Positions 9,558 to 28,363 of a DNA stretch of 61,826 bases are shown here, one piece after another. Origin of the DNA: Candidatus Omnitrophota bacterium (GTDB taxonomy: Bacteria > Omnitrophota > Gorgyraeia > Gygaellales > Profunditerraquicolaceae); the NCBI GenBank assembly GCA_028712375.1, contig JAQTQG010000006.1:1-61826 (forward strand), written 5' to 3'. How positions within the stretch are numbered: position 1 is the stretch's first letter; every line of letters begins with the position of its first letter. The notes below the pieces were generated by a model that was not told where the DNA came from, made no database searches, and was given only the letters and a program-made list of their open reading frames with translations. The position numbers were made by a program, and so were the translations under genes.

Positions 9558-9586
9558 ATAATTACGCCTGCTGCCTTAGAAGTAAT

Positions 9587-11531: not shown

Positions 11532-13268
11532 TTATGATTTTGTTAATTTTATCTGCGGGGCGAATAAATCGTAGAGCTCTTTTTCGTTTCGCATTATCTG
11601 CTCTGATTTGGCAATAACTATAGAATAGGGATTTTTAATAAAATACACCAAATCCGCGGCGTGGATCGCAGATAATCTATGCGAAACTATAATAAAGGTG
11701 GTTTTACTATAAGCCTGCCGTATATTCTTAATAATCTGCTCTTCGCTCTCTGAATCCATAGAAGACATTGCCTCATCAAGAATAAGTATTTTAGGATTTT
11801 TAATCAAAGCGCGCGCAATAGCAATTTTTTGTTTTTGCCCCTCCGAAAGTTTACAGCCATTTTCGCCGATTATAGTTGAATATTTATTAGGTAAATTATT
11901 AATAAATTGATCTGCCCCGGTCATCCGGGCCGCCCAGACAACCTGATCATTGCTTACTCTCTCCAGAGGGTATTTTATATTGTTAAAAATAGAATCCTCC
12001 CATAAAAATGGTTCCTGCATCGCAATACCAATCTGGCTTCTTAGAGAGATAAACTTAAATTCTTTTATATTGTGCCCATCAATCGATATTCCGCCCTGCC
12101 AAGGATCATACAGCCTCAATAAAAGATTCAGCAGCGTGGTTTTACCGCTGCCGGATCGTCCAGCAATTGCCACGCAGCTTCCCGGTTCAATAACAAAACT
12201 CAACTTCTCCAACACCGGGATTGATTTATATCCGAAACTTAAATTTTCAACCACAATACGGCCCTCATCCATAAGTATCTCTTGAGCCTGGGCAGATTCA
12301 ACAACCTTGGCTTCTTCGGATATCAACTGTTCAACCCTGCCGCAAGAAATAAACCCCCGGATAGCAACGCGCCAAAAAGAAGCAAAATTCTCCACTAATC
12401 CGAATAGCTGGCTTAAATAAACAATAACTACCGTTAAGGTCCCCAACGTCAACCTACCCCTGATCACCTGATATCCACCGTAAAAAACAATACCGCCGAT
12501 AACCACTTTGCTTATAGCATTGCCGGCGAATACCGCTAAAATATCCAATTTGGAATTCTTTAACTGAAGATGCATATTGATCAACCAATTGTGTAAATAC
12601 TTTTTTATCTCCGCGCCATCCGAACCGAAAGCTTTAACCAGTTTAATATGTGAAAAGAGCTCCGTTAATTTTTTAAACAAAAATTCGGTGTTCTTTATAA
12701 TATCTTCCCCGATATTTTTTAATTTTCTATTAAAATAATACTGGGACACCCCCATAACTAACATAATAAACCAGCTTAGCAATGTTATGCGCCAGTCAAG
12801 ATAAAACAAGACCAGGCAAGTAAATAATATGCCTCCTAAGATGGTGATGATTTTCCGAGGAACCGCCGTAATTAATTCAGCAATCCTTTCTGAATCGTAA
12901 GTTATTTTATACACATGTTCCCCGGTTGATTTACCTTGGAACCAATTTATGGAAAGTTTCTCAAAACATACGAATAAATCCCTGGTCAATTCTACGGTCA
13001 CCTTAAACTTTACAACTCTTTCCAAATAATCCGCTGCGGCTTTCACTACGCCGCTGACAACAAAAACCAACGCGCTGGCAGAGAAAAATATAACAAAATT
13101 TTTCAAATCTTTCCCGATAATTGCTTTATCCATAATCAGCTTGCCGAAATAAGGATTTACCAGGGCAAACAAAACGGTCAAGCTGCTTAGAATTAAAATC
13201 AACAGTTCGCTTTTCCAATAAGGCAAAAGGTACCTGGCAAATTTAAAAAATAATTTATTTTTTATCAT
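11532..13268 (-). CDS. ABC exporter, fused permease-ATPase (type I exporter), no N-terminal C39 peptidase domain
   Basis: Walker A GRSGSGKTT, signature LSEGQKQKIAIARAL, Walker B ILILDEA, and a six-TM N-terminal half. Confidence 0.9.
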   Translation of the reverse strand: MIKNKLFFKFARYLLPYWKSELLILILSSLTVLFALVNPYFGKLIMDKAIIGKDLKNFVIFFSASALVFVVSGVVKAAADYLERVVKFKVTVELTRDLFVCFEKLSINWFQGKSTGEHVYKITYDSERIAELITAVPRKIITILGGILFTCLVLFYLDWRITLLSWFIMLVMGVSQYYFNRKLKNIGEDIIKNTEFLFKKLTELFSHIKLVKAFGSDGAEIKKYLHNWLINMHLQLKNSKLDILAVFAGNAISKVVIGGIVFYGGYQVIRGRLTLGTLTVVIVYLSQLFGLVENFASFWRVAIRGFISCGRVEQLISEEAKVVESAQAQEILMDEGRIVVENLSFGYKSIPVLEKLSFVIEPGSCVAIAGRSGSGKTTLLNLLLRLYDPWQGGISIDGHNIKEFKFISLRSQIGIAMQEPFLWEDSIFNNIKYPLERVSNDQVVWAARMTGADQFINNLPNKYSTIIGENGCKLSEGQKQKIAIARALIKNPKILILDEAMSSMDSESEEQIIKNIRQAYSKTTFIIVSHRLSAIHAADLVYFIKNPYSIVIAKSEQIMRNEKELYDLFAPQIKLTKS

Positions 13269-13277
13269 ATTAGAAGC

Positions 13278-13718
13278 TTACCTCTTGCCTAAATCAGAAT
13301 CCGGACTCTGCCGAAAACTATATTTACTATTTATTGTTGCTGCAAAAAAATAATAAACCGCCAACCAATAAAAAAGAAACTTATTATAAAACCCCATTTT
13401 TTTATTATCTATAGCGATAATATTATCGGCCCTGTTGACCGCGACGACTTTGCCGATGACCCAATCATATTCCACCGGCTGTTCAATAAAAAGATCCCGG
13501 TCGCCTTTGGTTAAAAACACAATCCGCTTTTGATTTCTAATTATTTTTATTAACCGATGCGCAAATAAATTTCCTCCCCGGTTGAAAGCAACGACATCCC
13601 CGGGATCAAAATCCACATCCCGGGCAGATTTAATGACCAGCGCATCATTTGGACAAATAACCGGCATCATACAATTACCTTGGGATTTTTTATATATATA
13701 TTTTTCTTGCGGGATCAT
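13278..13718 (-). CDS. SipW/Sec11-type (S26B-like) signal-peptidase homologue with Cys in place of the nucleophile Ser
   Basis: GNCMMP aligns with SGSMEP. Also GDVVAF, the His box LFAHRLI, LTKGDRD (compare TKGDNN), VIGKVV, and a C-terminal TM helix. Confidence 0.6.
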   Translation of the reverse strand: MIPQEKYIYKKSQGNCMMPVICPNDALVIKSARDVDFDPGDVVAFNRGGNLFAHRLIKIIRNQKRIVFLTKGDRDLFIEQPVEYDWVIGKVVAVNRADNIIAIDNKKMGFYNKFLFYWLAVYYFFAATINSKYSFRQSPDSDLGKR

Positions 13719-13766
13719 TATAGCAATATTCCAGATTTATTAAACACTGTATTTAACTGTTGATTT

Positions 13767-14708
13767 TTACTCCTGGGCAAAATCAAAGAAATTAGAATTT
13801 GACCTGCCGGGCGCGCGCCGGGGATCATTAGAAAAAATAAATGCATTCTGCTGACGATTTAGCTGGTCACAAACACCGCAATAAGGGAATTTATCAAAAT
13901 TTGTTTTTTTATGCCCCTGCCTTAATTCTTCATACAAGCTACTGTGCATCACCTCTTCTATGCTTTGATCTCTTAAATTGCCCAAAACCAGGTAACCATT
14001 ATAATCAAAACAGCAGGGAACAACTACCCCGTCCCATTGCACTTGCAAAGGCCCACACCATGGCCTGCCGCAACTTTTAGGCTTAACCGCCTGAGCCCTG
14101 TAAACTCTTCCGTCAATATAGTTATGCGGCCGCCAAATTTCAACAAAATCAGCTGTTATCCAGAAATTTTCGAAAGCCGCCGCCTGATGGGCATTTTCAT
14201 CCAAAACAAGAAAAGAAAGCGAAATTTCCGGATGGGGCAAATGCCGAAGTTTTTTTTGTTCTATTAACTTTTGGACGTTCGCTAAAGTAACATTAAAAGA
14301 TAATCCGCGATGCACTAACTCATAAACATCGCTAGTCAATCCATAAAAACTTATCCTTAGGCCGTCTAGGCCTGAAGTAATTATATTATCAGACATCTGC
14401 GAGTTAAGTAAAGAGGCGTTGGTAATGGTATTTACGCTTAAGCCTCTATCTTTAATATATTTTATGCGCTCTATAAAATAAGGATCCAGCAGGGGTTCGC
14501 CGAATCCTCCTAAAAAAATATGTTTTACACCGCAAGACACAGCATTATCAACAATTTTTTTAAAAAGCGGCCATTCCATTATACCCTGCGCCCGGGTTAA
14601 TTTATCCCGCGGGCACATAATACAGCTGCTGTTACATAAATTTGTATTTTCAATCCTTACTTCTGGATTTGTTAGTTTCATCTTTTTTTTCACCTGATAA
14701 AAAAACAT
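13767..14708 (-). CDS. radical SAM protein with SPASM/twitch-like C-terminal Cys cluster
   Basis: CNSSCIMC (CX3CX2C) near the N-terminus. C-terminal CGRPWCGPLQVQWDGVVVPCCFDYNG...PYCGVCDQ. Confidence 0.8.
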   Translation of the reverse strand: MFFYQVKKKMKLTNPEVRIENTNLCNSSCIMCPRDKLTRAQGIMEWPLFKKIVDNAVSCGVKHIFLGGFGEPLLDPYFIERIKYIKDRGLSVNTITNASLLNSQMSDNIITSGLDGLRISFYGLTSDVYELVHRGLSFNVTLANVQKLIEQKKLRHLPHPEISLSFLVLDENAHQAAAFENFWITADFVEIWRPHNYIDGRVYRAQAVKPKSCGRPWCGPLQVQWDGVVVPCCFDYNGYLVLGNLRDQSIEEVMHSSLYEELRQGHKKTNFDKFPYCGVCDQLNRQQNAFIFSNDPRRAPGRSNSNFFDFAQE

Positions 14709-16236: not shown

Positions 16237-16243
16237 TTATATT

Positions 16244-17722
16244 TCAAATATTCCCCAGCCCAAGCTGCTTTATTTCCCCGATTACCATTTCCGGAGTTAA
16301 GTCCTGCATACATTTTCTCTCAGGCAAGATACAGCGCCCCGTACAAGGACTGCATTGACAAGCGGTATTCCTGATAACTTTATAAGCAGGATGATTATAC
16401 CCACTGACCACCGGATCAGTAGCGCCATAAACCACTGCAGCCGGAGTCCCCACGGCAAATGCAATATGCGCCGGGCCGGAATCATTACACACCACCAGTT
16501 TGGATTTTTTAATTACGGCAACTAATTGACTTTGGCTCAAGCTGCCGGTCAAATTTAAACAATTTCCTTCAAGCTGACTGGCAATTGCCCGGGATTTTAA
16601 CAACTCCACAGTATCGGATGCTCCGGAAATAACAATTTTATACTTGTAGTGCTGGGCAATAAACCGGGCGACCTGCAAATACCCTTGCGCCAACCATGTG
16701 CGGACATCATCTCTTCCGGGGACAATCACGGCAAAGGCCGTATCCGGACCAATTCCCTGTTTAGACAAAAGTTTTTCTGTATCCTGCAAAACCTCAGGCG
16801 GGACACTTAAGGCCGTTCCTAATCCATCTGTTTTTAAACCATTCTGCATTAAATAGTTCAAAGAAAGCCACCTCAGCCCGAGGCTGCCATAAGTTTTTGC
16901 TTCACGCACTATCCTAAAATTATATATTTTTGCTTTATTAAACAGTAATTTAAGATAGCCGATAAACGGAGATTCCCCCAACACAAAAATGTTTTTAATA
17001 TTTTTTTGATACAGTTGGCGCAAGACACGGGCGTCCACACAACCGGAATCCTCTTTTGGAGTAAAATACCAATAATCCACTCCCGGGATACACCTACTAA
17101 TATCTTTAAATTTACCCCAACTCAAACAATTAACCTTGTGCCCGGGAAAATTAATATTAACCGCCCTTATATAGGGGGTAGTTGCTGTTAAATCCCCAAT
17201 TCCTAATACACCTAAAATAACCAAATTTTCATTTGCGGTAGAAATTGATTGCCTGCGGACAAACATGCTCTGCAATAGAAGATACAAATACGCCGACCTT
17301 ACAGAGAATAATTTATTCCAGCAAGACTTCAGAGTATTTATTAAATCGTTTCTCCAGGCATTTATCAGACCCCCGGGGGAATAAATAAGGCCTCCTAAAT
17401 CCGGGACCCAAATTACTTTGACTTTAAACAAGCTTAAAAATAAAAATAATAAAAAATTTATAGAAGTTTTAATTATTTTTTTATCCGATAAAACAAATAT
17501 AATTACAGAATATTTATTGCGCAGGAGGGATAAAATACCATTCAGATGCCCAACGATCAAACGGCATTTACTGACAGACCAGACGATTTTTTCTTTTTTT
17601 CCACAAAGTATAACGGTTAACTCCGCCTCAGGGGCTATCTGCCGGGCGATCGGTATAATACATTTCCTGTAAACATTATAACTACTGATAAAAGCTGCTA
17701 AGCTCGGCTTGTTTTGGCTCAT
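16244..17722 (-). CDS. family 9 glycosyltransferase, paralogue of the downstream gene, same N-terminal extension
   Basis: GIGDLTATTPYIRAVNINFP and CNDSGPAHIAFAVG. The N-terminus is alignable with that of 14650..16236. ATGA overlap with the upstream gene. Confidence 0.7.
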   Translation of the reverse strand: MSQNKPSLAAFISSYNVYRKCIIPIARQIAPEAELTVILCGKKEKIVWSVSKCRLIVGHLNGILSLLRNKYSVIIFVLSDKKIIKTSINFLLFLFLSLFKVKVIWVPDLGGLIYSPGGLINAWRNDLINTLKSCWNKLFSVRSAYLYLLLQSMFVRRQSISTANENLVILGVLGIGDLTATTPYIRAVNINFPGHKVNCLSWGKFKDISRCIPGVDYWYFTPKEDSGCVDARVLRQLYQKNIKNIFVLGESPFIGYLKLLFNKAKIYNFRIVREAKTYGSLGLRWLSLNYLMQNGLKTDGLGTALSVPPEVLQDTEKLLSKQGIGPDTAFAVIVPGRDDVRTWLAQGYLQVARFIAQHYKYKIVISGASDTVELLKSRAIASQLEGNCLNLTGSLSQSQLVAVIKKSKLVVCNDSGPAHIAFAVGTPAAVVYGATDPVVSGYNHPAYKVIRNTACQCSPCTGRCILPERKCMQDLTPEMVIGEIKQLGLGNI

Positions 17723-18612
17723 TTAGCTGCAAGCGCCCTTACAAAATTTACCGCTGTGTTATCAGGCACAAACTCCAGTTCATAACAAGGGATATTTTTT
17801 ACAATCTGTCCGCATAAATCTATAGATTTTTGATAAGCGCAATTATCCCACAGCGGAGCATGCGATCTTGAAATAAGTAAAGATACCGCCTGGCTGCTGG
17901 AAACACGGGTAGCCTTATTCGCCTTTCCATGTTTTAGAAAAAAGATGCCCTTCAGCGGCGCCCCGGATGGAGATACATTTCTAAATTTACCGAACCACGG
18001 AGTCCCGAAAATCCAGAACTTTTTATTGATTTTCCGGATAATCACTTTATCGTCATTAAGTAACATTGCCCCGCTTTTTATCCATAAATTAGCGGTGGTT
18101 GTTTTTCCGTATCCGGAATGCCCTAAAAATATGAACCCTACCCCTTTATCCACCACTCCGCAGGAATGAAAAAGAACGGCGTTCTTGGTATAAAGCAACG
18201 AAGAAACTAAAATCGGCCCCATCAAAGGAAGCAAAGGATTGATTTCCGGAGTTTTCCCCAGCCGATTGCGGTCGAATATTTCTCCATAGCTGAAGTTTTT
18301 ATTAAAAACTGCGGCATGGTATGGCTGGGGTAAATATTTAATTTCGGGAGCGCTAAATAATAAAATTTTTTTATTCTCAGCCTGGTGCAAACCCCAATAA
18401 TATCCATCAAAGATTTTTTGGCTGTTATTTAAAGATAGAAACTTTTTATCCACGTCTCTGCATTTAATCACCAGCCTGATGTCCGGCCGGGACATAGAAC
18501 CCACGATAAACCTTTTTAGCATATGGATATTTTCAAGCTTGCTTAAAGAATTCTGAGATTCTAATGAAAATTTAATACCCCCGATTTTAAAACAGATTTT
18601 GCGCTTTACCAT
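17719..18612 (-). CDS. HPr-kinase-like P-loop protein (HprK C-terminal-domain homologue)
   Basis: P-loop FLGHSGYGKTT. The start is moved to ATG 18612 (MVKRKICFKIGG), which overlaps the upstream stop by 7 nt. Confidence 0.6.
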   Translation of the reverse strand: MVKRKICFKIGGIKFSLESQNSLSKLENIHMLKRFIVGSMSRPDIRLVIKCRDVDKKFLSLNNSQKIFDGYYWGLHQAENKKILLFSAPEIKYLPQPYHAAVFNKNFSYGEIFDRNRLGKTPEINPLLPLMGPILVSSLLYTKNAVLFHSCGVVDKGVGFIFLGHSGYGKTTTANLWIKSGAMLLNDDKVIIRKINKKFWIFGTPWFGKFRNVSPSGAPLKGIFFLKHGKANKATRVSSSQAVSLLISRSHAPLWDNCAYQKSIDLCGQIVKNIPCYELEFVPDNTAVNFVRALAAK

Positions 18613-20711
18613 ACATTTCCTTTGGTTAAGATTAATTGATTTGTAAAAAATAATGACTCCACATATTCTTCTGTGCCCAGGCTTTTTCTTGCCCGACAAT
18701 ATTCTTTTGCTGTTATTTTATCAAGAGAAATGCATTTTGAACACACATTGTTTGCCGGGCAATATTTACACCCTCGCTCTGCTTGGATTTTCTGCATGAG
18801 AGCAGATATCCTGCTGGATAAAACCTCTACCCCCTGCGCTGTCCGGCCAACCACTGTGCCGGAAAAACAAGTGCAGACCTTACCGCTTTCCCCTAACACC
18901 AGACGGCTTAAGTTGCTTAACGGACATTTCCTGTGCCAACGGCAACTGTCCAGAATTATTATATTTTTATTTTTTCCTTTTTTGAATAAAACCAGTTGGT
19001 TTTTCAGCGCAAGCATATCTTGATTATCGGCAATCTTATAAATACACCCGGAGTCAACAGAAGAATAATCTGCCAAATGCTTAAAATTAAGAGATCTTTT
19101 AAAACTATCCAATACTCTGTTTTCCAGGCCGGCAACACTTAAGCAACTGTAGCGGGGATGTAAAAAACTGGCCGTATTCACCAGCAAACTTAAATGCCCG
19201 GTTCTGCGGCCGGATAATAAAATTTCCACATTCTTGCCAAAAATAAAGCTGGACCCCAAGGCTAAGTTATTTTCCATCCATTGCACAGGAAATTTTTTAG
19301 CCGCCACAACCACATCAATATTTCTTTTTCTATTTTCGGTCCCGCCATATATACCCGTCATGTTCCTTAAAAAAACCTGCCCCGTAGCGTTAAAAAAGTT
19401 CAATGATTCTAAGTCATTGTTTAGGCGGGGAATCTTATACACATTATATGCATAATTAACGGGATTAAGTACCGGATCAGAAACAACTTGCTTAAACTTA
19501 AAAGGCGGGATTCTTATCCCCCATTGCAAATGCTCTTTGGCGATTTGCGTACCAGAAAATATGTTCAAAAAATTATGCACATAAGTAGTAGGATTTAATT
19601 CCCTGAGGAAATTGATCGTTTTAATCGCTTTCTCATACGTATCACCAGGCAGGCCGAAAATAACACTTATATTGACATGAAATCCAAGTTTTTTAGCAGA
19701 ATAGGTAATCTTTTTTACCTTACCGATAAAATTCTTTTCCGCAGTAAAAATACCAGTTTTCTCCAATGCCTGCCCTTTGATTTTCTTTATGTTAAACAAA
19801 ACATCAACAGATGCGCTCTCCAGCCCGAATTTAATATGCTCAAAACCTGCCGCGTGCAATTCCTTTAAAATACCTTCATCAATAAAATCCGGACGGGTCA
19901 GGAATGAAAATCTTAACTTTAATTTATGCGCCGATATTTTGTCACAAATCCGGCTAACCCGCGTTTTGTTAAAAGTAAATATATCATCCTGTATTGCTAT
20001 TTTTCGATGATGATAATCGTGAATTTTGGAAGAAATTAACTGGAATTCCCGGATAATACGCCGGGTAGAATGATACCGGATAGTATGCCGGGACATCGCG
20101 GCAAAATTACAATAACTGCAATTAAATATACAGCCCCTGCTGGTTAACAGGGGAATTTCACTATTTACCCTCAAGACATCCGCTGGATCCAGAACCCCGC
20201 TAAGGTAAGGAGAGGGAATTGCATCTAAATTTTTTATTAAAGGCCTGCCTGGATTCCTGATAATTTTATTATTTAAACGATAAGTAATACCTTTTATTTT
20301 TGATAAATTTTTTCTTGCGCCTTGAGACAATAACTCCAACACAGTAAGCTCGCCTTCGCCTCTTACGCAAAAATCTAGAGCTTTTGTATCCTGCATAATA
20401 TTCATATCCGAAAATGTAGCCGTGGGGCCGCCGGCCAGGGTTAGAACTGTGGGAGTTTTTTGCTTAATTGCAGAGGTAATTTTTTTAACCAGGAAATAAT
20501 TAGCGTCAAAACAGGTAAACCCGGCAAAAACCGGACGTAAATCAAGGATCCGATCGGTTAATTCGCTGACGCTTAATTGATTACTGCAGATGAATTGCGA
20601 AGCATTTATTCCATTTTTTTTCAAATAGGCAACAATATAACTGGCACCTAGATGATATTGGCTGCTGCCGTCTTGCTGAAAAAAAATAAAAACACATTTG
20701 TTTCCTCTCAT
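18606..20711 (-). CDS. B12-binding-domain radical SAM enzyme (class B-like) with Cys-rich C-terminal extension
   Basis: Flavodoxin-like N-terminal region, SRGCIFNCSYCNF (CX3CX2C), and a ~250-aa C-terminal extension ending CKYCPANNVCSKCISL. Confidence 0.75.
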   Translation of the reverse strand: MRGNKCVFIFFQQDGSSQYHLGASYIVAYLKKNGINASQFICSNQLSVSELTDRILDLRPVFAGFTCFDANYFLVKKITSAIKQKTPTVLTLAGGPTATFSDMNIMQDTKALDFCVRGEGELTVLELLSQGARKNLSKIKGITYRLNNKIIRNPGRPLIKNLDAIPSPYLSGVLDPADVLRVNSEIPLLTSRGCIFNCSYCNFAAMSRHTIRYHSTRRIIREFQLISSKIHDYHHRKIAIQDDIFTFNKTRVSRICDKISAHKLKLRFSFLTRPDFIDEGILKELHAAGFEHIKFGLESASVDVLFNIKKIKGQALEKTGIFTAEKNFIGKVKKITYSAKKLGFHVNISVIFGLPGDTYEKAIKTINFLRELNPTTYVHNFLNIFSGTQIAKEHLQWGIRIPPFKFKQVVSDPVLNPVNYAYNVYKIPRLNNDLESLNFFNATGQVFLRNMTGIYGGTENRKRNIDVVVAAKKFPVQWMENNLALGSSFIFGKNVEILLSGRRTGHLSLLVNTASFLHPRYSCLSVAGLENRVLDSFKRSLNFKHLADYSSVDSGCIYKIADNQDMLALKNQLVLFKKGKNKNIIILDSCRWHRKCPLSNLSRLVLGESGKVCTCFSGTVVGRTAQGVEVLSSRISALMQKIQAERGCKYCPANNVCSKCISLDKITAKEYCRARKSLGTEEYVESLFFTNQLILTKGNVW

Positions 20712-20810
20712 ATTTAAGGTGCCTGATTAGTGCGAGGAAAAATTAAGATAGGCTGATAAGCTTATCCATTTAACAAGAAAAGGCGATTATTAAAAAATTC
20801 TAAGCCGGAT

Positions 20811-20975
20811 TTAACCCGAAGCAGTACTGCATATACTGGATGAACAAGTACATGATGGCGTTGACGGGCCATTACCAGAAGAGGGTTTCTGGCATCCGGT
20901 TAAAACTGCTTCTTCGGCAATTAATTTAACCCTGGCAAGTTTTGGTTTCTCATAACGCGCTTTGGTCTTCTTCAT
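20811..20975 (-). CDS. 54-aa candidate precursor peptide: MKKTKARYEKPKLARVKLIAEEAVLTGCQKPSSGNGPSTPSCTCSSSICSTASG
   Basis: Hand-translated; it is below the ORF-track size cutoff. A strong SD (GGGGGAGAA) lies 2 nt before the ATG and 12 nt after the preceding rSAM stop. Basic leader, Cys/Ser/Thr-rich tail. Confidence 0.7.
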   Translation of the reverse strand: MKKTKARYEKPKLARVKLIAEEAVLTGCQKPSSGNGPSTPSCTCSSSICSTASG

Positions 20976-20987
20976 ATTCTCCCCCTG

Positions 20988-22064
20988 CTAAGCCATCAAA
21001 TTTCTTATTTTTTTAAACCTTAGTTTTGCTGTTTTACACATAAATGCGACGGGAGTGCCGATTGCGGTTTTTTCGATCAGATTCCACCCGGGGCAACATC
21101 CGCAAAGTACGTATAATGAACAATTATAGCATTTATTAGTCCTATTTTTCAACTTAATTTTGCTTGCATAAACCCTGGGCAGCTCTTTAAAAAATCCCTC
21201 CCGGAAGGAACCTTGAAGTATATTATAATTGGGCAGGCGGGACAAAACACAACCCCCCAAACGGCCAGAGGGGTCAATGTTGAACATCCCCTTACCAGCT
21301 GAACACATATATACTGAATCAGCCGGTTTTTGCCCGTAATATATCTTGTAAAATTTCTTCCATTCTTGCAGCCTTTTTTTATTGCTCAAGTCATATCGCA
21401 CTATTTCCTCCGGAGTCAACCTATACCCGCAGGGTTCAATCGAACCATCCAGATCCGAAGTGATCATCGGGTCATAGCGAAATGTGGTTTTAAACTTATC
21501 TGCTAACCGCTCTATTGCTTTAAACTCATGTTTATTTAATGTCATTAGCGCTGTTTTAACTTTAAATTTAATACCATACTTATGCAATAGTTTTATGCCA
21601 TTAAAACATTTCTCAAATGAACCGTTAACCCTGGTAATGCTTTCATAGGTTTTTTTAGTAACACCATAAATAGAAATTTCGATACCGAAAGGCGGATATC
21701 TGTGCAATAAATCAGCCATCCTCCGGTCGATTAGCGTCCCGTTGCTCAGCAACGTTATTAAAAAACCTTTACTTTTGGCATACAGGTAAATTTTTTTAAA
21801 ATCCCTCCTAATCATCGCTTCTCCGCCGGTCAAGGCTAGCCAGAGACAACCGGACGCAGCAAGCTGGTCCAAGACGCTGCAGACTTCCCGGAATGACATT
21901 TCTTTGCTTGCTTTATTCCTCTTGCCGATGTAACAATGCACGCACTTTAAATTACATTTGTAAGTAAGGTCTATCTGCCCTTGAATAGGAATATTTTTAT
22001 TAACGGTTTTATTAAAAATCCCCTTATTAAATATATTGTAAGGCAACACGCAGATATTACTCAT
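20988..22064 (-). CDS. radical SAM/SPASM peptide maturase paralogue 5 (subtype A)
   Basis: CNLKCVHCY, GCLWLALTGGEA, C-terminal CSAGKGMFNIDPSGRLGGC...CYNCSLYVLCGCCPG. ATGA overlap with the upstream gene. Confidence 0.85.
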   Translation of the reverse strand: MSNICVLPYNIFNKGIFNKTVNKNIPIQGQIDLTYKCNLKCVHCYIGKRNKASKEMSFREVCSVLDQLAASGCLWLALTGGEAMIRRDFKKIYLYAKSKGFLITLLSNGTLIDRRMADLLHRYPPFGIEISIYGVTKKTYESITRVNGSFEKCFNGIKLLHKYGIKFKVKTALMTLNKHEFKAIERLADKFKTTFRYDPMITSDLDGSIEPCGYRLTPEEIVRYDLSNKKRLQEWKKFYKIYYGQKPADSVYMCSAGKGMFNIDPSGRLGGCVLSRLPNYNILQGSFREGFFKELPRVYASKIKLKNRTNKCYNCSLYVLCGCCPGWNLIEKTAIGTPVAFMCKTAKLRFKKIRNLMA

Positions 22065-23176
22065 TGCTTCTCACCATTCTCTTTGCGCAACCTGGCTATT
22101 TTACAATAATAATTTTTTATCTTTGTATACCCTTTGGCGGAATCAGGATTATCCAAAAGGTTAAAACAAATACCGCAATAGGCAAGATAGGCGCATTTTT
22201 TACAAAAACAATCATTTTGGTCTCTTTCTTCTGCAAGTTTTTTTAAAAAATCCTGCCAACAAGCAGTAATTCCGCGCTTGACCAGATTATATTTCTGTTT
22301 TATGCACGGAAAATACCGATTTACGTCCAAATCCCCGCAAGGAGTAATGATCATCCCTTTTAAAGCAGAATTAAGCTGGTCCAGTTTTTGGCAATAATTT
22401 GTTGTCGCTATACCCCGGCGCTCATCTTCTTTAATCTTTCTGTAGAACTCTTTAAGCGTTCTACTTCTCGACTGCCCATACTCATTCTTTTCCACCTGCA
22501 AAACATCCTTAACCGTAGCCAAACAGGATTCAATGCTATCCAGGCAGGTATCATGAAGAGGGGGGAATAAAACCGGATTGCACATAAAACGTATCCCTCT
22601 GCTTATGGCAAAATCTTTAACCCGGCTAATCTGGTCTTTGTTTTGCCTGAATAACGGGGTTTTTATCCCTATTCTCACGCCATTCTTTAAAAGAAAATTT
22701 ATTCCCGCCAAACATCTATTAAATGAACCGGCCACCTGAGTAATCTCTTCATAAATCCTTCTGTCGGTAGCATACAGCGATATCTGTATCTCAAAAGGAG
22801 GGTTCTTTTTGAAAAATTCAGCGGCGGCAAAATCAATTAAAGCAGCATTAGTATATATGATAATTAAGAAACCTTTCTTTTTTGCGTAACGATAAATTTT
22901 AAAAAAATCTCTGTGCGCAAGCGGTTCTCCGCCGGAAAGAACCAGCCATAAAACCCCCGCATTGGCTAATTTATCCAATATTTTATAAATATTTTTTAAT
23001 TTTAACTCTCTTTTATCTATCTTGGCGGTAAGATGTTCATCCTCAATATAACAATGGATGCATTTATAATTACAGCGGTGGGTAATTTCCAATGCGCTTA
23101 CTTTCGGCAAGGCATATTTGTCCCTTTCAAAGAACTTCGTATAAAATGAAGGGTAATCTAACTCCCGGATGATCAT
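22061..23176 (-). CDS. radical SAM/SPASM peptide maturase paralogue 4 (subtype B)
   Basis: CNYKCIHCY, GVLWLVLSGGEP, C-terminal ITPCGDLDVNRYFPC...CFCKKCAYLAYCGIC. ATGA overlap. Confidence 0.85.
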   Translation of the reverse strand: MIIRELDYPSFYTKFFERDKYALPKVSALEITHRCNYKCIHCYIEDEHLTAKIDKRELKLKNIYKILDKLANAGVLWLVLSGGEPLAHRDFFKIYRYAKKKGFLIIIYTNAALIDFAAAEFFKKNPPFEIQISLYATDRRIYEEITQVAGSFNRCLAGINFLLKNGVRIGIKTPLFRQNKDQISRVKDFAISRGIRFMCNPVLFPPLHDTCLDSIESCLATVKDVLQVEKNEYGQSRSRTLKEFYRKIKEDERRGIATTNYCQKLDQLNSALKGMIITPCGDLDVNRYFPCIKQKYNLVKRGITACWQDFLKKLAEERDQNDCFCKKCAYLAYCGICFNLLDNPDSAKGYTKIKNYYCKIARLRKENGEKQ

Positions 23177-24225
23177 CTAAAATGCTCCTCTAACGCCTTA
23201 AGCCTGGCCCGAGTCACTTGGCAATGATAATCTCGAAAAACACTCCCCTGGCGGCTCAGCACGCTATGCGAAGCGCATTGGTAGCAAAAACGGAAGATTT
23301 CACATTCTTTACAAACACAGTCAAAAGAATCAACCTGTTGTTCTGCCTGTGCTAAATATTGTTTCCAAGCCGATGAAAATTTTATTTTCGTAAGATCAAA
23401 TACCAGCGGTATACAGGGGAATCTCCGCGTATTATTGAACTCCCCAAAAGCATTAATGATAAAGGCGCGGTGCACTCTTTCAAAAAGGCATTTTTTTATA
23501 CTCTTTCCCTCTTTATAACAAAAATAGTCCTGTTTCCAGCGGTCCAACAATCCATCGCTTAGTTCAACCTTAACCAACTCTTCCGCAGACAACCCCTGCT
23601 TCATTACGCGATCTTCATGAATAATTGTAGGGTCTACGTAAAGGTAATAGTCAAAATCAATGCCTAATTTTCTGGCATAATCTTTTGCGATAAATAATTC
23701 ATGCCGGTTTACTTTTAATAACGGCATCCTCAACATACCAATCCTTAAATCTGACTTCAATAACAGGCTTAGTCCGTTCCTAAAGCGGCTAAACGATCCC
23801 TTAACCCCGGAAACTTTTTCATACACATTTTCGGTAACACCTAAAATGGATAATTGAACTTGAAGCGGCGGATTTTTCTCAAGGCGAGTAATAAGTTTTT
23901 TATCTAATAATGTAGCATTGGTTAAGAGCGTAATGACAAACCCCATTTTTTTAGCATAAAGATAAATATCGAGAAAGTCTTTTCTAATTAAAGGTTCACC
24001 TCCGGTGATCGTCAGCCACAAACAGCCGGCATCCCGGATATCTTTAAGAATTTTAAAAACTGAAGCAGTACTTAATTCTTTTTTATCCGAAAAATCGCAG
24101 CTTGTTGAACAGTGGATACAGCGATAATTGCACTTATAAGTTATTTCAAAACTGCCTTTATAGGGCAACCCGCGGGAAATTATTCTTTGCTCATTAATGG
24201 CGCGGAAAAAAGATTTTTTAACCAT
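23173..24225 (-). CDS. radical SAM/SPASM peptide maturase paralogue 3 (subtype B)
   Basis: CNYRCIHCS, GCLWLTITGGEP, C-terminal CVCKECEIFRFCYQC. The track start at 24246 is TTG; ATG 24225 (MVKKSFF) overlaps the upstream stop by 8 nt and is preferred. Confidence 0.8.
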   Translation of the reverse strand: MVKKSFFRAINEQRIISRGLPYKGSFEITYKCNYRCIHCSTSCDFSDKKELSTASVFKILKDIRDAGCLWLTITGGEPLIRKDFLDIYLYAKKMGFVITLLTNATLLDKKLITRLEKNPPLQVQLSILGVTENVYEKVSGVKGSFSRFRNGLSLLLKSDLRIGMLRMPLLKVNRHELFIAKDYARKLGIDFDYYLYVDPTIIHEDRVMKQGLSAEELVKVELSDGLLDRWKQDYFCYKEGKSIKKCLFERVHRAFIINAFGEFNNTRRFPCIPLVFDLTKIKFSSAWKQYLAQAEQQVDSFDCVCKECEIFRFCYQCASHSVLSRQGSVFRDYHCQVTRARLKALEEHFR

Positions 24226-25264
24226 GTTTTCCAAAGCTCTTCGCAAAATATTTCGCCCTAAGTTTTGCTACCTGGCAATAATAATCTAAATATTTTCTTT
24301 GATCATTCTTCTGTTTTAAAATGGCTGAACACTTATCGCAAAATGCAAAGAAGGAGCAACCGCTGCACTCCCTGACGCTGGAATAGTTCTCCAAAGACTT
24401 TCTGTTTAAAATCTTCCAGCCGTCCCGGAAAGTACCTGAAATTAAACTATACCCGGGTGTACGCGGATACATTTTGCACATCATAAGCTTACCGCAAGAA
24501 TCAATCATAAACGACTTGCGCCCGGCATCACAGGTATATTTCCTTTTCCCCGGCTGTTTATTACAAGACCCTTCAAATTGCTTCTGCCATAATTGACGCC
24601 TCAGGCTGCGTTGAGCTAAGTCTAGCGCAACAACTTTATCCGGAGCCAAAGCATACTTAAAAACCTCTCCGCTGCCATCAATCCCCGGCCTAATCACCGG
24701 GTCAAATTTAAAAAAGAAGTTTTTCGCCCGGGCCAGTTGGCCTATTTTTTTAATCTCCTGAACATTTAATGTCGTCACGGTGGTTTTTATTTCAGTACGG
24801 ACACCGTATCTAAACAAAAGATCGATACCCGCCATGCATTTTTTATAGGAGCCTTTAACTCCGGTTATTTTTTCATAAACTTCTTTGGTCGCCCCGTAAA
24901 CAGAGACCTCAACAAGATAAGGTGGTAAACCTCTAAACAGTTTTGCTATTTTATCATTAATCAAGGTGCCATTAGTCAGTATCTTAACCAGCAAGCCTTT
25001 ACTTTTAGCGTATCTGTATATTTCAGAGAAGTCCTTCCTTAATAATGGTTCGCCGCCGGTAAAATGCAGCAAAATACAACCTGCCCGGACAATTTGGTCA
25101 AATATTTTGCATACTGTTTCATAAGACAATTCTTTAGCATAAAAATCATTCTTTAGATAACAATGCCGGCACTTTAGGTTACAATGTGAGGTTAATTCTA
25201 TACCGCCCTTAATCGGTAAAAAGTTACTTTTAAACAGTTTGGTTATTTTTTCTTCGAATAACAT
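24218..25264 (-). CDS. radical SAM/SPASM peptide maturase paralogue 2 (subtype A)
   Basis: CNLKCRHCY, GCILLHFTGGEP, C-terminal CDAGRKSFMIDSCGKLMMC...CSGCSFFAFCDKC. Confidence 0.85.
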   Translation of the reverse strand: MLFEEKITKLFKSNFLPIKGGIELTSHCNLKCRHCYLKNDFYAKELSYETVCKIFDQIVRAGCILLHFTGGEPLLRKDFSEIYRYAKSKGLLVKILTNGTLINDKIAKLFRGLPPYLVEVSVYGATKEVYEKITGVKGSYKKCMAGIDLLFRYGVRTEIKTTVTTLNVQEIKKIGQLARAKNFFFKFDPVIRPGIDGSGEVFKYALAPDKVVALDLAQRSLRRQLWQKQFEGSCNKQPGKRKYTCDAGRKSFMIDSCGKLMMCKMYPRTPGYSLISGTFRDGWKILNRKSLENYSSVRECSGCSFFAFCDKCSAILKQKNDQRKYLDYYCQVAKLRAKYFAKSFGKHG

Positions 25265-26369
25265 TATTTTTAGCCCTGAAATAGTTAGCGCGCAAAGCCG
25301 CAGTTTCGCAATAATGGCTCTTCATCGCCTCAACTAGGTTAGCTCCGGATGCCTGAGGCTGTTTAAAAGCTGCTGCGCCTAAACAATAATCACAAAAATA
25401 CCGTATTTTACAATTTAAACATTTTTTATTATCCTCAAGAATTGTATCGCTTATTTTTTGCAATTTTAACCAAGCCTCTTTTATCCTGCCACCCGCTAAA
25501 CTGCTGCCTGGCACTCTAGCTAACATGCACATGCTCATCGATCCATCTGCACAAACACAAAAAGCGTTTTGACCGGCGCCGCACTCATCAAATATGTATT
25601 CTTTTTCCAACCGGCTTTTCTTTACGCTAATCTTATTTTTAAAATACTCTAATTTTTCCTTAAATTGCATTTCTGCATTTACTACTTCTTTTGGTTTTAA
25701 TCTATAGCTAAAGGGTACAAGCGAGCCATCCAAGCCGGGATAAATAGCTGCATCAAACCTAAACGGCACATCTAGTTCTTTAGCCCACTTTCTAGCCATT
25801 CCTAACTCATGCTTGTTGATAGTCAACAGGGGCATTTTAAGGCTAAGCGGTATTTTGTGTGAAATTAATAATCCCAGCCCTTTTTTAAAATTTTCGAATG
25901 ACCCTGCTACTTTGGTAACCGCCTCATAAGTTTTTCTGGTACACCCGTAAATTGAAACCTCCACAAAAAGCGGCCGCCAGACAGTAAGCATCTTTGCTAA
26001 CTGCGGGGTAACAAGAGTAGCGTTGGAAAAAATTACAATTAAAAAACCCTTTTTCTTGGCATATAAGTAAATGTCCGGGAAATCTTTTCGCAAAAATGGT
26101 TCCCCGCCGGTAAAAATCAACCAAAGACAACCGCAAGAAGCAATTTTATCAAGAAGCCTTAAAATTTTATTTTTTGGCATGCGGGCTGTTTTAGAAGCAG
26201 ACTTGGGAATATAGCAATGCACGCACTTTAAATTACATTTTAAAGTCGGCTCAAAAAAACACTTCAGAGGTACATCTTTATTGTGAGTTTTACTGTGCAG
26301 GCGGGCTCTAAAAACATTATGCAGAAGTTCTTGCATTTTCAATGCCGGGGTCCTTCTGACAACCCTCAC
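25230..26369 (-). CDS. radical SAM/SPASM peptide maturase paralogue 1 (subtype A)
   Basis: CNLKCVHCY, GCLWLIFTGGEP, C-terminal CGAGQNAFCVCADGSMSMC...CLNCKIRYFCDYC. The track start is GTG at 26369 (GTGA overlap with pqqD-like). An alternative ATG at 26336 fits the paralogue N-terminal lengths better. Confidence 0.8.
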   Translation of the reverse strand: MRVVRRTPALKMQELLHNVFRARLHSKTHNKDVPLKCFFEPTLKCNLKCVHCYIPKSASKTARMPKNKILRLLDKIASCGCLWLIFTGGEPFLRKDFPDIYLYAKKKGFLIVIFSNATLVTPQLAKMLTVWRPLFVEVSIYGCTRKTYEAVTKVAGSFENFKKGLGLLISHKIPLSLKMPLLTINKHELGMARKWAKELDVPFRFDAAIYPGLDGSLVPFSYRLKPKEVVNAEMQFKEKLEYFKNKISVKKSRLEKEYIFDECGAGQNAFCVCADGSMSMCMLARVPGSSLAGGRIKEAWLKLQKISDTILEDNKKCLNCKIRYFCDYCLGAAAFKQPQASGANLVEAMKSHYCETAALRANYFRAKNNVIRRKNNQTV

Positions 26370-26647
26370 TTAATACTTTCAATTTCTTCCAGTTGAGCTA
26401 TAAAATCGTTTAAATCTTTCTCCGCTGTTGTCTCGGCTACTGCATACTCTTGGATAATCATTTTTTTTATTTTTTCAACATTAGTCTTACCGTCAATTTT
26501 TTCCCAAATCCAGGCAGCTAGCGGAGAAAGCGTATAAATACAATCGACCTCCTCAGTAGTTTTAACCATGGGCACCAGCAAAGCCTCATCATCTATCATT
26601 CTAAAAACAAACGAAGAATTTTTTTTATAGCACTTTTTCATATCCAT
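26366..26647 (-). CDS. PqqD-family protein (RiPP recognition element-type peptide chaperone)
   Basis: About 93 aa with FRMIDDEALLV...YTLSPLAAWIWEKIDGKTNVEKI...EY. ATG 26647 lies 5 nt after GGAGG. The track start (TTG 26692) is actually part of a -35 box. Confidence 0.75.
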   Translation of the reverse strand: MDMKKCYKKNSSFVFRMIDDEALLVPMVKTTEEVDCIYTLSPLAAWIWEKIDGKTNVEKIKKMIIQEYAVAETTAEKDLNDFIAQLEEIESIK

Positions 26648-26663
26648 AATTCCCTCCTTTTTT

Positions 26664-26692
26664 AGTATAGCTCCCGCAAAAAACCCTGTCAA
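26664..26692 (-). promoter_or_regulatory. near-consensus sigma70-type promoter of the maturation operon
   Basis: -35 TTGACA (26692..26687), 17-nt spacer, -10 TATACT (26669..26664), about 20 nt upstream of the pqqD-like SD. Confidence 0.55.
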
Positions 26693-26792
26693 TCAGTATT
26701 TCCCCGGCCCTATTATACCGACTGGTAATTTAATTATAACCGGCCTTACACAAAACATTTCTAGCCGCCATTTTAAAATTGCCTAAGCGCAA

Positions 26793-27968
26793 CTAACAAC
26801 TTATGTTTTTCAAAATTATATACGGTATCCGCAGTTTATATATTACCTTTGTTTTAAAGCTATATGGACCAAGACCGTAAAACCTTGCAAATTGCTCCTG
26901 CGGAATATTTAATAAGTAATTAATCGGTTCATAGTAATTGTCAAAAAATAAAAAATGCCCATAAAGATACATTTTTTTATCCCGGGCAGATCCAGTATTC
27001 CTAAAAAATGTTTTGTTTTTAATAAATCTTTCAATGATTTTACGTTTGCGTGGTGAAATTTCCAATTCCTGCACAACACTAGGCGGAAATTTTACATCAA
27101 AAAAAAGCTTAGCTTGGGTTAAACAAAAAAATAAAGTTGAACCGATCCGGCTCCTGCGGCATTCTTTCAATACATAGTCCCAATCCATACTGTTTTTATA
27201 TTCATTGAGCAAAATTGCAATATCGCATACATTCTTAATGCAGAGGATTTTACCAAAATGCCTAAGATGCAGAGCTAAAGAAAACAATTCATCTTCCCGG
27301 GAAAGATAAGCAAGCGGTGCTTGACCACTAATTGCATGGTTTTGGATACGCTGCCATAATAATGGCAGCTGTTTATAACTTCTTCGATAATCTAAAGCCC
27401 AATGAACCTCTACGGTAACCGGATAACTTGATTGGGACTCTTTAGTATAGACAAAATGATACTGGTGATTACGCCAGTAGCTTTGGCTAAACCCGTGGAG
27501 ATCTTTTTTGTATCCCAAAGAAAGCATTACATCCTCTGCCGCTGCTAGATCAGTTTCTTCTATCAGGATGTCAATGTCGGAACTCTGCCTGCCCGGGCGG
27601 TTTTTATATAATGTGTTAATTAACGACATCCCCTTCAACGGAACGGAGTTAATATTCTTTTCTTTTAATGCAATAGTTACATCCCAAAAGGCATTCTTTA
27701 AATTCTCGGCATAGAAAATATTGGCATAAAAATTATTACGTAAATAGTTTTCAACTTCTCCGGGGAGTTTTAAATTGTTTTTTTTAAAAAAAAGGTGGGC
27801 AAACACCAGCAATTCATGATAACGCAGGTATTCCAATAAAATATCGTATTCTATTTCGCCATAGCCCAGGTGGTTTTTGAAAGTATTTTCTTCCCTATAG
27901 ACAACGTCTCTTGCTATATCAAGCAACAACCCGGTCTCGGCGCTATCTGAAGTGCTGAATTCTAACAT
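26793..27968 (-). CDS. nucleotidyltransferase-fold protein (uncharacterised NTP_transf_5/PF14907-like)
   Basis: 391 aa with GRQSSDIDILIEE (a G-S...D-x-D polymerase-beta-type NTase motif). This family often neighbours PqqD/HprK-like genes. Confidence 0.55.
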   Translation of the reverse strand: MLEFSTSDSAETGLLLDIARDVVYREENTFKNHLGYGEIEYDILLEYLRYHELLVFAHLFFKKNNLKLPGEVENYLRNNFYANIFYAENLKNAFWDVTIALKEKNINSVPLKGMSLINTLYKNRPGRQSSDIDILIEETDLAAAEDVMLSLGYKKDLHGFSQSYWRNHQYHFVYTKESQSSYPVTVEVHWALDYRRSYKQLPLLWQRIQNHAISGQAPLAYLSREDELFSLALHLRHFGKILCIKNVCDIAILLNEYKNSMDWDYVLKECRRSRIGSTLFFCLTQAKLFFDVKFPPSVVQELEISPRKRKIIERFIKNKTFFRNTGSARDKKMYLYGHFLFFDNYYEPINYLLNIPQEQFARFYGLGPYSFKTKVIYKLRIPYIILKNISC

Positions 27969-28010
27969 ATTTACCTATTATAGTCAGTAAATTTTGCGAA
28001 GGTCTAGCTT

Positions 28011-28039
28011 ATTATATTCGGTCTTTTGACAATCAACAA
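28011..28039 (-). promoter_or_regulatory. candidate sigma70-type promoter for the nucleotidyltransferase gene
   Basis: -35 TTGTTG (28039..28034), 17-nt spacer, -10 TATAAT (28016..28011), 43 nt upstream of ATG 27968. Confidence 0.35.
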
Positions 28040-28327: not shown

Positions 28328-28363
28328 TAAACCCAAACCAATCAACTATTAACCTATAGAATA

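Follow-up and report, generated by a model that had tools for sequence, protein, structure and literature searches.

In a 61,826-nucleotide stretch of DNA from a Candidatus Omnitrophota bacterium (contig JAQTQG010000006.1 of assembly GCA_028712375.1; the window, to which all positions refer), we analyzed a gene cluster on the minus strand that runs from position 27968 down to 11532. We think it likely that this region is one biosynthetic operon, together with a nucleotidyltransferase (NTase) gene immediately upstream, for a ribosomally made, heavily modified and exported peptide, a product of the RiPP type (peptides that the ribosome synthesizes and that are modified post-translationally). With the same confidence, we expect the product to be a small exported peptide that is cross-linked by radical S-adenosylmethionine (rSAM) enzymes, phosphorylated and decorated with sugar, and the operon to be an rSAM-containing, enlarged relative of the systems that make linear polyphosphorylated peptides (LPP). 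A RiPP-type system had been proposed for this region from the nucleotide sequence alone (the sequence-only reading), and that proposal is strongly supported by two findings described below, a precursor family and a gene cassette that both recur across phyla.

The genes form an unbroken run of open reading frames (ORFs). All the parts named in the sequence-only reading are present there, at the coordinates it gave and on the minus strand, and Pfam or NCBIfam matches support every assignment. The run consists of the following genes, where RRE stands for RiPP recognition element and GT9 for glycosyltransferase family 9:

26793..27968, minus strand: PF14907 nucleotidyltransferase-fold protein (LppN/PsmN-like), 391 aa; Pfam E 1.4e-43; motif SSDIDIL
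26366..26647, minus strand: discrete PqqD-type RRE, ~93 aa; PF05402, E 1.9e-13 (for the ORF 26366-26692)
25230..26369, minus strand: rSAM paralog 1; PF04055; CX3CX2C and CX2CX5CX2C..C
24218..25264, minus strand: rSAM paralog 2; PF04055; 61%-identical ortholog on a 1.5-kb contig (P0007)
23173..24246, minus strand: rSAM paralog 3; PF04055
22061..23176, minus strand: rSAM paralog 4; PF04055
20988..22064, minus strand: rSAM paralog 5; PF04055; 42-43% identical to its ortholog, the only rSAM in canonical cassettes
20811..20975, minus strand: predicted precursor peptide, 54 aa, MKKTKARYEKPKLARVKLIAEEAVLTG-CQKPSSGNGPSTPSCTCSSSICSTASG; GGGGGAG ribosome-binding site upstream
18606..20711, minus strand: B12-binding rSAM, 701 aa; B12-binding and Radical_SAM Pfam domains; Cys-rich C-terminal extension
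17719..18612, minus strand: ScmC/HprK-like P-loop kinase, 297 aa; His149, GxSGxGKT (Lys170), Asp187-Asp188
16244..17722, minus strand: GT9 glycosyltransferase a; Glyco_transf_9; extra N-terminal domain of ~165 aa
14650..16236, minus strand: GT9 glycosyltransferase b; Glyco_transf_9; 25% identical to its paralog GT9a, whose N-terminal domain it shares
13767..14708, minus strand: seventh rSAM, SPASM/twitch type, 313 aa; PF13186 and PF04055
13278..13718, minus strand: leader peptidase resembling archaeal/SipW-type signal peptidases (LppS-like), 146 aa; Cys16 (GNCMMP), His54, Asp73
11532..13268, minus strand: MsbA-like ABC exporter; ABC_membrane and ABC_tran; no peptidase domain

As computed from these coordinates, and as previously claimed, neighboring genes in the run either overlap or lie no more than 99 nt apart, the widest gap being the one between the 54-aa ORF and the B12-rSAM gene.

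A predicted precursor peptide of a family found across phyla

The sequence-only reading had nominated the 54-aa ORF as the precursor. We built a hidden Markov model (HMM) from 49 peptides of other genomes, leaving the window's own peptide out, and searched 1,747 stop-to-stop segments of the window with it; the 54-aa ORF was the sole match (E 4.6e-16). The peptide-family HMM also finds an ORF in 82 of 86 loci, between the genes for the rSAM enzyme and the ScmC-type kinase. Judged by this conservation, the small ORF is a real precursor, belonging to a family conserved across phyla, and the earlier nomination passed the conservation check that had been asked of it.

Among 80 to 82 unique peptides, the family follows a common pattern: a basic N-terminus, then Y-x-K-P-x-[IVL]-x-x-V-x-L-x-x-E-E-A-V-L-x-x, then C-K...C...C, often with a GS end. 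The Tyr of the YxxP motif is kept in 76 of 80 peptides and lies exactly 20 residues before the first Cys in 72 of 80. CK is present in 73 of 80 and three Cys are found in 69 of 82; the second Cys follows the first by a median of 14 residues, the third lies a median of 6 further on, and the tail is ~6 residues long. The last residue is Ser or Thr in 79 of 82 peptides, 57 of which end in GS. The window peptide keeps this scaffold, with 20 residues from Y8 to C28, 14 from C28 to C42, 7 from C42 to C49 and a tail of 5. Its leader reads YEKPKL at the conserved motif and ARVKLIAEEAVLTGC thereafter. Its oddities are an extra Cys44, making four Cys in the core, and 12 Ser/Thr among the 27 core residues. 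The 104-nt spacer after the precursor gene, in which we looked for an attenuator, folds no better than shuffled sequences (z = 0.63). One foreign locus (L008:8977-9820) carries three tandem precursor-like ORFs with one common leader, two of them with a truncated or Cys-less core.

The window as an enlarged version of a widespread gene cassette

We first saw a recurring gene set around three homologs of the rSAM paralogs, where a PqqD gene, an rSAM gene, an ORF of 51-53 aa, a gene annotated as 'ScmC' (PF27840) and a PF14907 gene stood together; the small ORFs of these three neighborhoods resemble the window's 54-aa ORF. Patterns taken from an alignment of ScmC proteins were then run against 185,579 species, each represented by one genome. 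Relatives were found in 241 species genomes, and the 80 loci fetched come from more than 12 phyla, all from metagenome-assembled genomes. Their sources include Desulfobacterota, Chloroflexota, Nitrospirota, Omnitrophota, Acidobacteriota, WOR-3, KSB1, Aminicenantes, Planctomycetota, Armatimonadota and a few archaea. The ScmC family itself comprises 423 clusters (50% identity) at E <= 1e-30 and 4,838 at E <= 1e-10.

Gene order in the 80 loci is nearly universal: PqqD, one rSAM, the peptide, ScmC, an S24/S26-type peptidase and the NTase, with or without an ABC transporter. The rSAM gene is a fixed member in ~72 of 82 loci, and the single rSAM of a canonical locus always matches paralog 5 of the window best. 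Because this order recurs in about 80 independent loci, the clustering goes beyond chance. The window has all the cassette parts in order, except that the NTase gene lies upstream and extra genes are inserted, namely four more rSAM paralogs, the B12-rSAM, two GT9s and a sugar-type SPASM rSAM. We conclude that, by its gene content and order, the window is an enlarged member of a widespread, uncharacterized cassette. Whether the gene set co-occurs in other genomes had been set as a check on the sequence-only reading; the RRE, rSAM, kinase, peptidase, NTase and exporter indeed stand together in fixed order elsewhere. Our literature search found no description of an rSAM-containing cassette of this kind.

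Three further loci of metagenomic origin (L087-L089), reached through relatives of the B12-rSAM, are also enlarged. Like the window, they combine several rSAM paralogs with ScmC, PqqD and large B12-rSAMs that belong to its subfamily (38-39% identical across 96% of the length); unlike the window, each carries the B12-rSAM and PqqD genes twice, along with three rSAMs and a tetratricopeptide-repeat (TPR) protein, and none has a GT9. Their peptides belong to the same family and have a long Ser-rich tail ending in Ser. A neighbor-joining tree suggests that their rSAM expansions arose independently of the window's, and because they too are enlarged, enlargement of the cassette appears to be recurrent. 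The window is the largest cassette among the loci compared. Its number of maturases, which had been called far above the usual one, is seven, against one in canonical loci and five in the three other enlarged loci.

Radical-SAM enzymes

All seven rSAM proteins of the window carry the CX3CX2C motif, as had been read from the sequence. The five paralogs share 26-36% identity with one another and match PF04055 with E values of 1e-17 to 1e-24 in Pfam. The sequence-only reading had described them as rSAM/SPASM enzymes; the Pfam SPASM model does not match them, and the auxiliary-cluster motif CX2CX5CX2C...C is invariant all the same. The invariant Cys are C45/C49/C52 and C317/C320/C326/C329/C354. 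Among solved structures, paralog 5 is nearest to SkfB, a thioether synthase (E 9e-17). At least 896 homologs are found by a profile made from all five paralogs. Among the 120 best matches, paralogs 1-4 have no counterparts except the 61%-identical ortholog of paralog 2.

The closest solved structures to the B12-rSAM are the C-methyltransferases TokK and CysS. Full-length relatives are 31-41% identical, and many are from Omnitrophota. Two homologs (P0146 and P0181) have a fused PqqD domain, which supports a peptide substrate for that subfamily. The seventh rSAM (13767-14708) is closest in structure searches to the sugar-modifying enzymes BtrN, BlsE and DesII, and is probably a sugar-tailoring enzyme rather than a peptide maturase. 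According to the sequence-only reading, placement of the rSAM enzymes in cofactor or glycan biosynthesis families would have counted against a RiPP pathway; that condition is touched by the sugar-enzyme-like seventh protein only.

The database matches raise a different explanation, namely a maturation system for an enzyme or for a redox cofactor derived from a peptide, comparable to the pathways for pyrroloquinoline quinone (PQQ), mycofactocin or heme d1 (NirJ/AhbD) or to a tungsten-enzyme maturase. The top NCBIfam matches of the paralogs are indeed AhbD, AhbC, NirJ and the mycofactocin maturase, and that of the seventh rSAM is a tungsten cofactor oxidoreductase maturase. However, the scores are four- to eightfold under the curated cut-offs and mostly align the generic rSAM half. 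The locus also holds no partner oxidoreductase or tetrapyrrole gene, its leader peptidase, exporter, kinase and NTase are foreign to those pathways, and its conserved precursor has a leader of the lasso/LPP type. On cut-offs and context we rejected the AhbD, NirJ, mycofactocin and tungsten-maturase assignments, and we regard an explanation of this kind as highly improbable.

The paralogs share features with the SkfB/AlbA/PapB maturation systems, in which a CX3CX2C motif and an auxiliary Cys motif are combined with RRE guidance and a Cys-containing core. The gene set that marks sactipeptide and ranthipeptide systems (an rSAM with auxiliary Cys motif, an RRE and a Cys-bearing core) is present in the window. 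Unlike those systems, the window has an RRE that is separate rather than fused, scores that lie far under their cut-offs, and a kinase, NTase and signal peptidase that are foreign to them.

RRE, kinase, peptidase, nucleotidyltransferase and exporter

The start codon of the PqqD gene is probably the ATG at 26647, with an AGGAGG site upstream of it. The top NCBIfam match of the protein is the lasso PqqD chaperone, with 30 bits, under the cut-off. The kinase ORF (17719-18699) matches Hpr_kinase_C (PF07475) with 26 bits (E 6.6e-6), under the gathering score of 33.3, and its precomputed Pfam match is PF27840, 'ScmC'. Within the ScmC-like family the Walker A and Asp-Asp motifs are invariant, with Lys170, Thr172 and Asp187 among their residues, and so is His149; the His lies 21 residues before the Lys and the Asp-Asp pair 17 after it, a spacing that fits His140, Lys161 and Asp178/179 of HPr kinase/phosphatase. 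An AlphaFold2 model built from a 52-sequence alignment has a predicted local distance difference test (pLDDT) score of 92.8. A Foldseek search of this model against the PDB returned phosphoenolpyruvate (PEP) carboxykinases (E 2.6e-8) and HPr kinase/phosphatase (E ~1e-6), with modest TM-scores of 0.3-0.48. An exact look-up with the longer, TTG-started form of the kinase had no match, and a word-based search found two relatives at 72% identity, on contigs of 1.3-1.4 kb.

The peptidase scores 22.8 bits against Peptidase_S24 (PF00717; gathering score 23.3) and 38 bits, under the cut-off, against the archaeal signal peptidase I model TIGR02228; orthologs at related loci exceed the TIGR02228 cut-off, with 64 and 57 bits. 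The active-site motif is GxSMxP in 45 of 46 peptidases of relatives, whereas the window reads GNCMMP and one other locus GMCMYP. The window protein thus has Cys in place of the nucleophilic Ser and retains the His (AHRLI) and the Asp (KGD). Because it has a C-terminal hydrophobic segment and no N-terminal one, it is probably tail-anchored and faces the cytoplasm.

Homologs of the NTase are found in 42 related loci. In nine loci (including L001:12176-13708, L031:2993-4624 and L061:4836-6467) the gene is fused to that of the peptidase; these fusions link the two enzymes functionally and indicate that they act on the same substrate. Searches of PDB sequences with the NTase and the peptidase gave no usable match. 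The exporter's top family is MsbA (315 bits, under the equivalog cut-off of 602), and comparable exporters occur in nine related loci.

An LPP-type core joined to an rSAM maturase

LPP are linear polyphosphorylated peptides of Bacillota, encoded by lppA, K, B, S, D and N (Popov et al., Nat Commun 2026, PMC13381572). In their core machinery LppB is a discrete RRE, LppK an HprK-like kinase, LppN an uncharacterized nucleoside triphosphate (NTP)-transferase and LppD an MsbA-like exporter; the leader motif is YxxPxVLxHQxIxFETxxS, and the clusters often lie within capsule loci (PMC13381572). LppK adds up to four phosphates on core Ser3; LppS cuts the leader only if it is presented by LppB, and phosphorylation favors cleavage; LppN had no effect in the host used (PMC13381572). 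LPP are stated to be restricted to Bacillota, and the main text and supplements, in the parts available to us, mention no radical SAM enzyme (PMC13381572).

By family and description, five of the seven core parts of the window (RRE, kinase, peptidase, NTP-transferase and exporter) correspond to the LPP core; the other two are the SkfB/PqqE-like rSAM with its auxiliary Fe-S motif and the ~55-aa precursor. The window has a signal peptidase I-like peptidase, with bit scores just under the cut-offs and a Cys nucleophile, beside a discrete RRE. It has an HprK-like kinase, assigned by family (PF07475, PF27840, PEPCK/HprK fold) rather than by comparison with the LppK sequence, and an NTP-transferase of PF14907, a family to which LppN presumably also belongs, with an MsbA-like exporter (315 bits). 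The catalytic residues of the two peptidases are similarly spaced (Ser29/His68/Asp93 in LppS, Cys16/His54/Asp73 in the window). In both systems the leader opens with a YxxPx[V/L] RRE-binding motif and the loci often stand in polysaccharide clusters. The LppS cut site, between Y+15 and Y+16, would align with the junction between EEA and VL in the window leader. The systems differ in that LPP clusters have no radical SAM and a product described as linear, whereas the window operon has seven rSAM genes. The LPP leader continues with HQxIxFETxxS, whereas in the window only the YxxPx[L/V] part is present, as YEKPKL. The LPP core is variable and not Cys-patterned, whereas that of the cassette is Cys-patterned. 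Finally, LPP occur in Bacillota, whereas the cassette is found in Desulfobacterota, Chloroflexota, Nitrospirota, Omnitrophota, Acidobacteriota and others. Judged by its genes, the most fitting description of the cassette is that, in phyla other than Bacillota, an LPP-type core is combined with an rSAM maturase and with a precursor whose Cys are patterned. The sequence-only reading recognized this architecture as no characterized class; that view needs revision, since the LPP core has the same set of non-rSAM genes (PMC13381572).

Paeninodin and pseudomycoidin, both lasso peptides, share with the cassette an HprK-like kinase, an NTP-transferase-fold protein, a [Y/W]xxP leader and a discrete RRE. 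In the pseudomycoidin pathway the kinase phosphorylates the C-terminal Ser, and PsmN, an NTP-transferase-fold protein, is required for adding one or two hexoses to the phosphate (PMC6993621). A C-terminal Ser target matches the 79 of 82 cassette peptides that end in Ser or Thr, but not the Gly end of the window peptide. The cassette differs in lacking a cyclase and a B2 protease, in removing the leader by a signal-peptidase-like enzyme and in having rSAMs. No Asn-synthetase-like cyclase or transglutaminase-like B2 protease was found among the cluster ORFs and ten others (all those of at least 500 aa included), in agreement with what had been read from the sequence.

The sequence-only reading had named the SynChlorMet cassette (TIGR04248-04251: ScmC, ScmD, ScmE and ScmF) as the nearest relative. 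It has the same logic of an HprK-related P-loop protein, a PqqD homolog and a PqqE-like rSAM/SPASM enzyme, and the PF27840 match agrees, but the relationship is only distant, with all four models far under their cut-offs. To our knowledge, the TIGRFAM description of that system includes two rSAMs but identifies neither a precursor nor a peptidase or an NTase. We rejected membership: against cut-offs of at least 125 bits for ScmC, 100 for ScmD and 400 for both ScmE and ScmF, there was no TIGR04249 match at E <= 0.001 (relatives score 23-43 bits), ScmD scored 28 bits and ScmE/ScmF 53-84 bits. GeoRSP membership was likewise rejected on curated cut-offs.

Glycosyltransferases and the unity of the operon

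Both GT9 proteins carry an N-terminal domain of ~165 aa with the pattern Y..YRKC...GKK...W..KC, to which no family matches. Their top matches are the lipopolysaccharide (LPS) heptosyltransferases II, III and I, and in structure searches WaaF or other GT9 proteins; the best score, 79.8 bits against a cut-off of 134.6 (TIGR02195), does not place them among the LPS enzymes. A metagenome scan for the GT9 pair gave a single ordinary GT9 (23% identity), around which there were no cassette genes, and no protein with the extra N-terminal domain, so co-occurrence lends the GT9s no support. Downstream of the exporter, after a 316-nt gap, lie genes for two PMT_2 (GT-C) membrane glycosyltransferases (7914..11215, minus strand); they have no homologs at related loci, and it is uncertain whether they are members of the cluster. 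A Wzy_C gene lies further downstream, at 1180-2295.

Such genes could mean that two unrelated modules share one operon: a RiPP module (NTase, RRE, rSAMs, peptide, B12-rSAM and kinase) and an envelope-glycolipid module whose substrate would be a lipid-linked glycan and not the peptide. The second module would consist of the two heptosyltransferase-like GT9s and the sugar-type rSAM together with the ABC protein as an MsbA-like flippase and both PMT_2 (ArnT-like) proteins. The resemblance of the GT9s to LPS enzymes fits this, as do the ABC protein's top family, the likeness of the seventh rSAM to BtrN, BlsE and DesII, the PMT_2 and Wzy_C genes downstream, and the absence of the GT9 and seventh rSAM genes from the other ~85 loci. 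However, the peptidase and a full-length MsbA-like exporter belong to the peptide cassette elsewhere and to the LPP core. Because these two cassette members lie downstream of the GT9 and rSAM genes, the latter stand enclosed by cassette genes, and the junctions are 4-nt overlaps or spacers of 7-48 nt. Moreover, the GT9 scores fall below the LPS enzyme cut-offs, and the extra N-terminal domain of both proteins is not seen in LPS heptosyltransferases. We therefore consider a two-module operon unlikely.

Proposed pathway

Under the reading that we prefer, a single operon for one modified peptide, the pathway could run as follows. The RRE would bind the leader motif YEKPKL. Paralog 5 and the four other rSAM paralogs would cross-link the core, thioethers from Cys28, Cys42, Cys49 and the extra Cys44 being the likeliest kind, and the B12-rSAM would C-methylate the peptide. 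The kinase would phosphorylate a core Ser, most likely the nearly invariant C-terminal Ser/Thr in the family and a Ser of the Ser-rich tail in the window. A sugar decoration, placed either on the phosphate or on Ser/Thr, may be assembled by the NTP-transferase and the two GT9s and tailored by the BtrN/BlsE-like rSAM. The RRE would then present the leader to the Cys-nucleophile peptidase at the membrane, with a cut near the junction of EEA and VL, and the MsbA-like pump would export the product. Gene content, gene order, family conservation, catalytic motifs and the kinase fold, the last from a predicted model, are seen directly; our confidence in the individual chemical steps is much lower than in the RiPP pathway as such.

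Several points weigh against this reading. The matches to HprK_C and Peptidase_S24 and every NCBIfam match fall under curated thresholds. Near relatives (72% for ScmC, 61% for rSAM paralog 2) are known only from contigs of 1.3-1.5 kb. Related loci hold no equivalent of the two GT9s or of the seventh rSAM, and only the position of these three genes between ScmC and the peptidase and exporter ties them to the pathway. The nucleophile of the window peptidase is Cys instead of Ser, with which the enzyme may plausibly be active. The window peptide has CQ where the family has CK and ends in Gly (...STASG) where the family ends in Ser/Thr; because of this Gly end, the C-terminal phosphosite predicted for the family is missing from it. 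The phosphosite is the weakest point and is uncertain, with the family's C-terminal residue pointing to the paeninodin mode and LPP using core Ser3. More generally, we infer the chemistry of the rSAM-containing family by analogy.

Polysaccharide genes around the cassette

We clustered the neighboring ORFs of 82 loci, many of them on short contigs. Wzz/GNVR/bacterial tyrosine kinase (BY-kinase) genes flank the cassette in 18 of the 82, from at least seven phyla; further neighbors are a pepcterm_ATPase-like AAA_22 gene (14 loci), a gene for an HD-domain protein (15 loci) and genes for ABC-2 transporters (17 loci). Neighbors for polysaccharide export or chain length (Wzz/BY-kinase, Poly_export, AAA_22, HD) were noted at L001, L004, L007, L010, L012, L019, L020, L027, L028, L030-L033, L052, L064, L069, L072 and L081. 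Similarly, the LPP and paeninodin clusters of Bacilli lie within capsule loci, and expression of lppB rises along with that of an exopolysaccharide (EPS) gene (PMC13381572).

A functional link between cassette peptides and surface polysaccharide is thus a live possibility. In one form, the modified peptide would be a component of exopolysaccharide or capsule assembly, such as a phospho-glycosylated acceptor or primer, an anchor or an export-controlling signal, and not a free natural product. The flanking genes, the Bacilli clusters with their co-induced lppB, the glycosyltransferases inside the window operon and the PMT_2 and Wzy_C genes downstream are all in keeping with this. However, only a minority of loci show the association, although short contigs are common among them; no experiment connects a peptide of this kind with polysaccharide; the window has no Wzz, Wza or BY-kinase genes near the cluster; and a dedicated exporter and leader peptidase fit a secreted peptide equally well. 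We judge it improbable that the peptide is such a component. A related idea, which we offer as a speculation with a somewhat better yet still small chance, is that cassette peptides are rSAM-cross-linked and phospho-glycosylated parts of the exopolysaccharide or capsule machinery, with the phospho-Ser as the point of glycan attachment. In that case the window would show the link between peptide and glycan directly, its peptide operon having recruited glycosyltransferases and a sugar-tailoring rSAM. If true, the product would be a type of peptide-phosphate-glycan conjugate that is not known from bacteria, and the idea would explain why LPP, paeninodin and cassette clusters all lie in polysaccharide loci.

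Promoter-like sites, borders and neighboring genes

The region around the operon contains the following candidate regulatory sites:

28298..28328, minus strand: terminator-like hairpin, 13 pairs and a T run, which ends the upstream lipoprotein gene
27977..28006, minus strand: promoter-like site before the NTase gene, TAGACC-18-TATAAT, 10/12, 9 nt upstream of the start codon; consensus match only
26664..26692, minus strand: promoter-like site before the PqqD gene, TTGACA-17-TATACT, 11/12; top match in 20 kb
21123..21152, minus strand: internal promoter-like site, TTGAAA-18-TATAAT with an upstream TG, 11/12, ~150 nt 5' of the precursor ORF; consensus match only

The hairpin is the probable upstream edge of the locus. 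The site at 26664-26692 had been singled out earlier as a near-consensus promoter; its 11/12 match and its rank as the best in 20 kb stand. However, the region as a whole has 63 promoter-like sites against 59 +/- 7.7 in shuffled sequences, and because this total equals chance, the sites are to be read as consensus matches only.

Apart from one 150-aa ORF nested in a longer minus-strand gene, every ORF of at least 150 aa in the window (1-61826), 46 in number, is on the minus strand. The GC content is 0.38 over 7.3-28.3 kb versus 0.425 over 28.3-61.8 kb, where housekeeping genes are found (Dxs, PheT, ThrS, UvrD and RNase Y), and the cluster may lie in an accessory region. A genomic-island test, in which we sought a direct repeat of tRNA-Gln near 28 kb, found no att-like repeat, just a local tandem repeat.

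Elsewhere in the window, a 94-nt unit that carries a GC-rich hairpin is present in three tandem copies at 7319-7600, two perfect and the third 81% identical. The repeat starts inside the tRNA-Gln(ctg) gene (7261-7334, minus strand), at its 5' end, and could be a real duplication of the region upstream of the tRNA or an assembly artifact. A 657-aa ORF at 2873-4846, between a GDSL-like gene and the Wzy_C gene, has no Pfam match. A 6S RNA gene lies at 48250-48411 on the minus strand (Rfam RF00013, 61.7 bits), and tRNA-Val, tRNA-Leu and tRNA-Cys lie within 58038-58568.

Implications

If our reading is correct, the logic of LPP biosynthesis, in which a kinase and an NTP-transferase are combined with an RRE-guided, signal-peptidase-like leader peptidase, would reach beyond Bacillota into a dozen or more phyla that are mostly uncultured, and LPP-type phosphorylation and radical-SAM cross-linking would meet in one pathway. 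The pattern Y-20-CK...C...C...GS would provide a precise precursor signature for genome mining. The recurrent polysaccharide-export neighborhood bears on the cellular role of phosphorylated RiPPs. The window is among the richest versions of the cassette, with seven rSAMs including a B12-rSAM and two unusual GT9s, and would be a good target for heterologous expression. For the long-uncharacterized ScmC/HprK-related cassettes, these findings supply a hypothesis that names both a precursor and a pathway.

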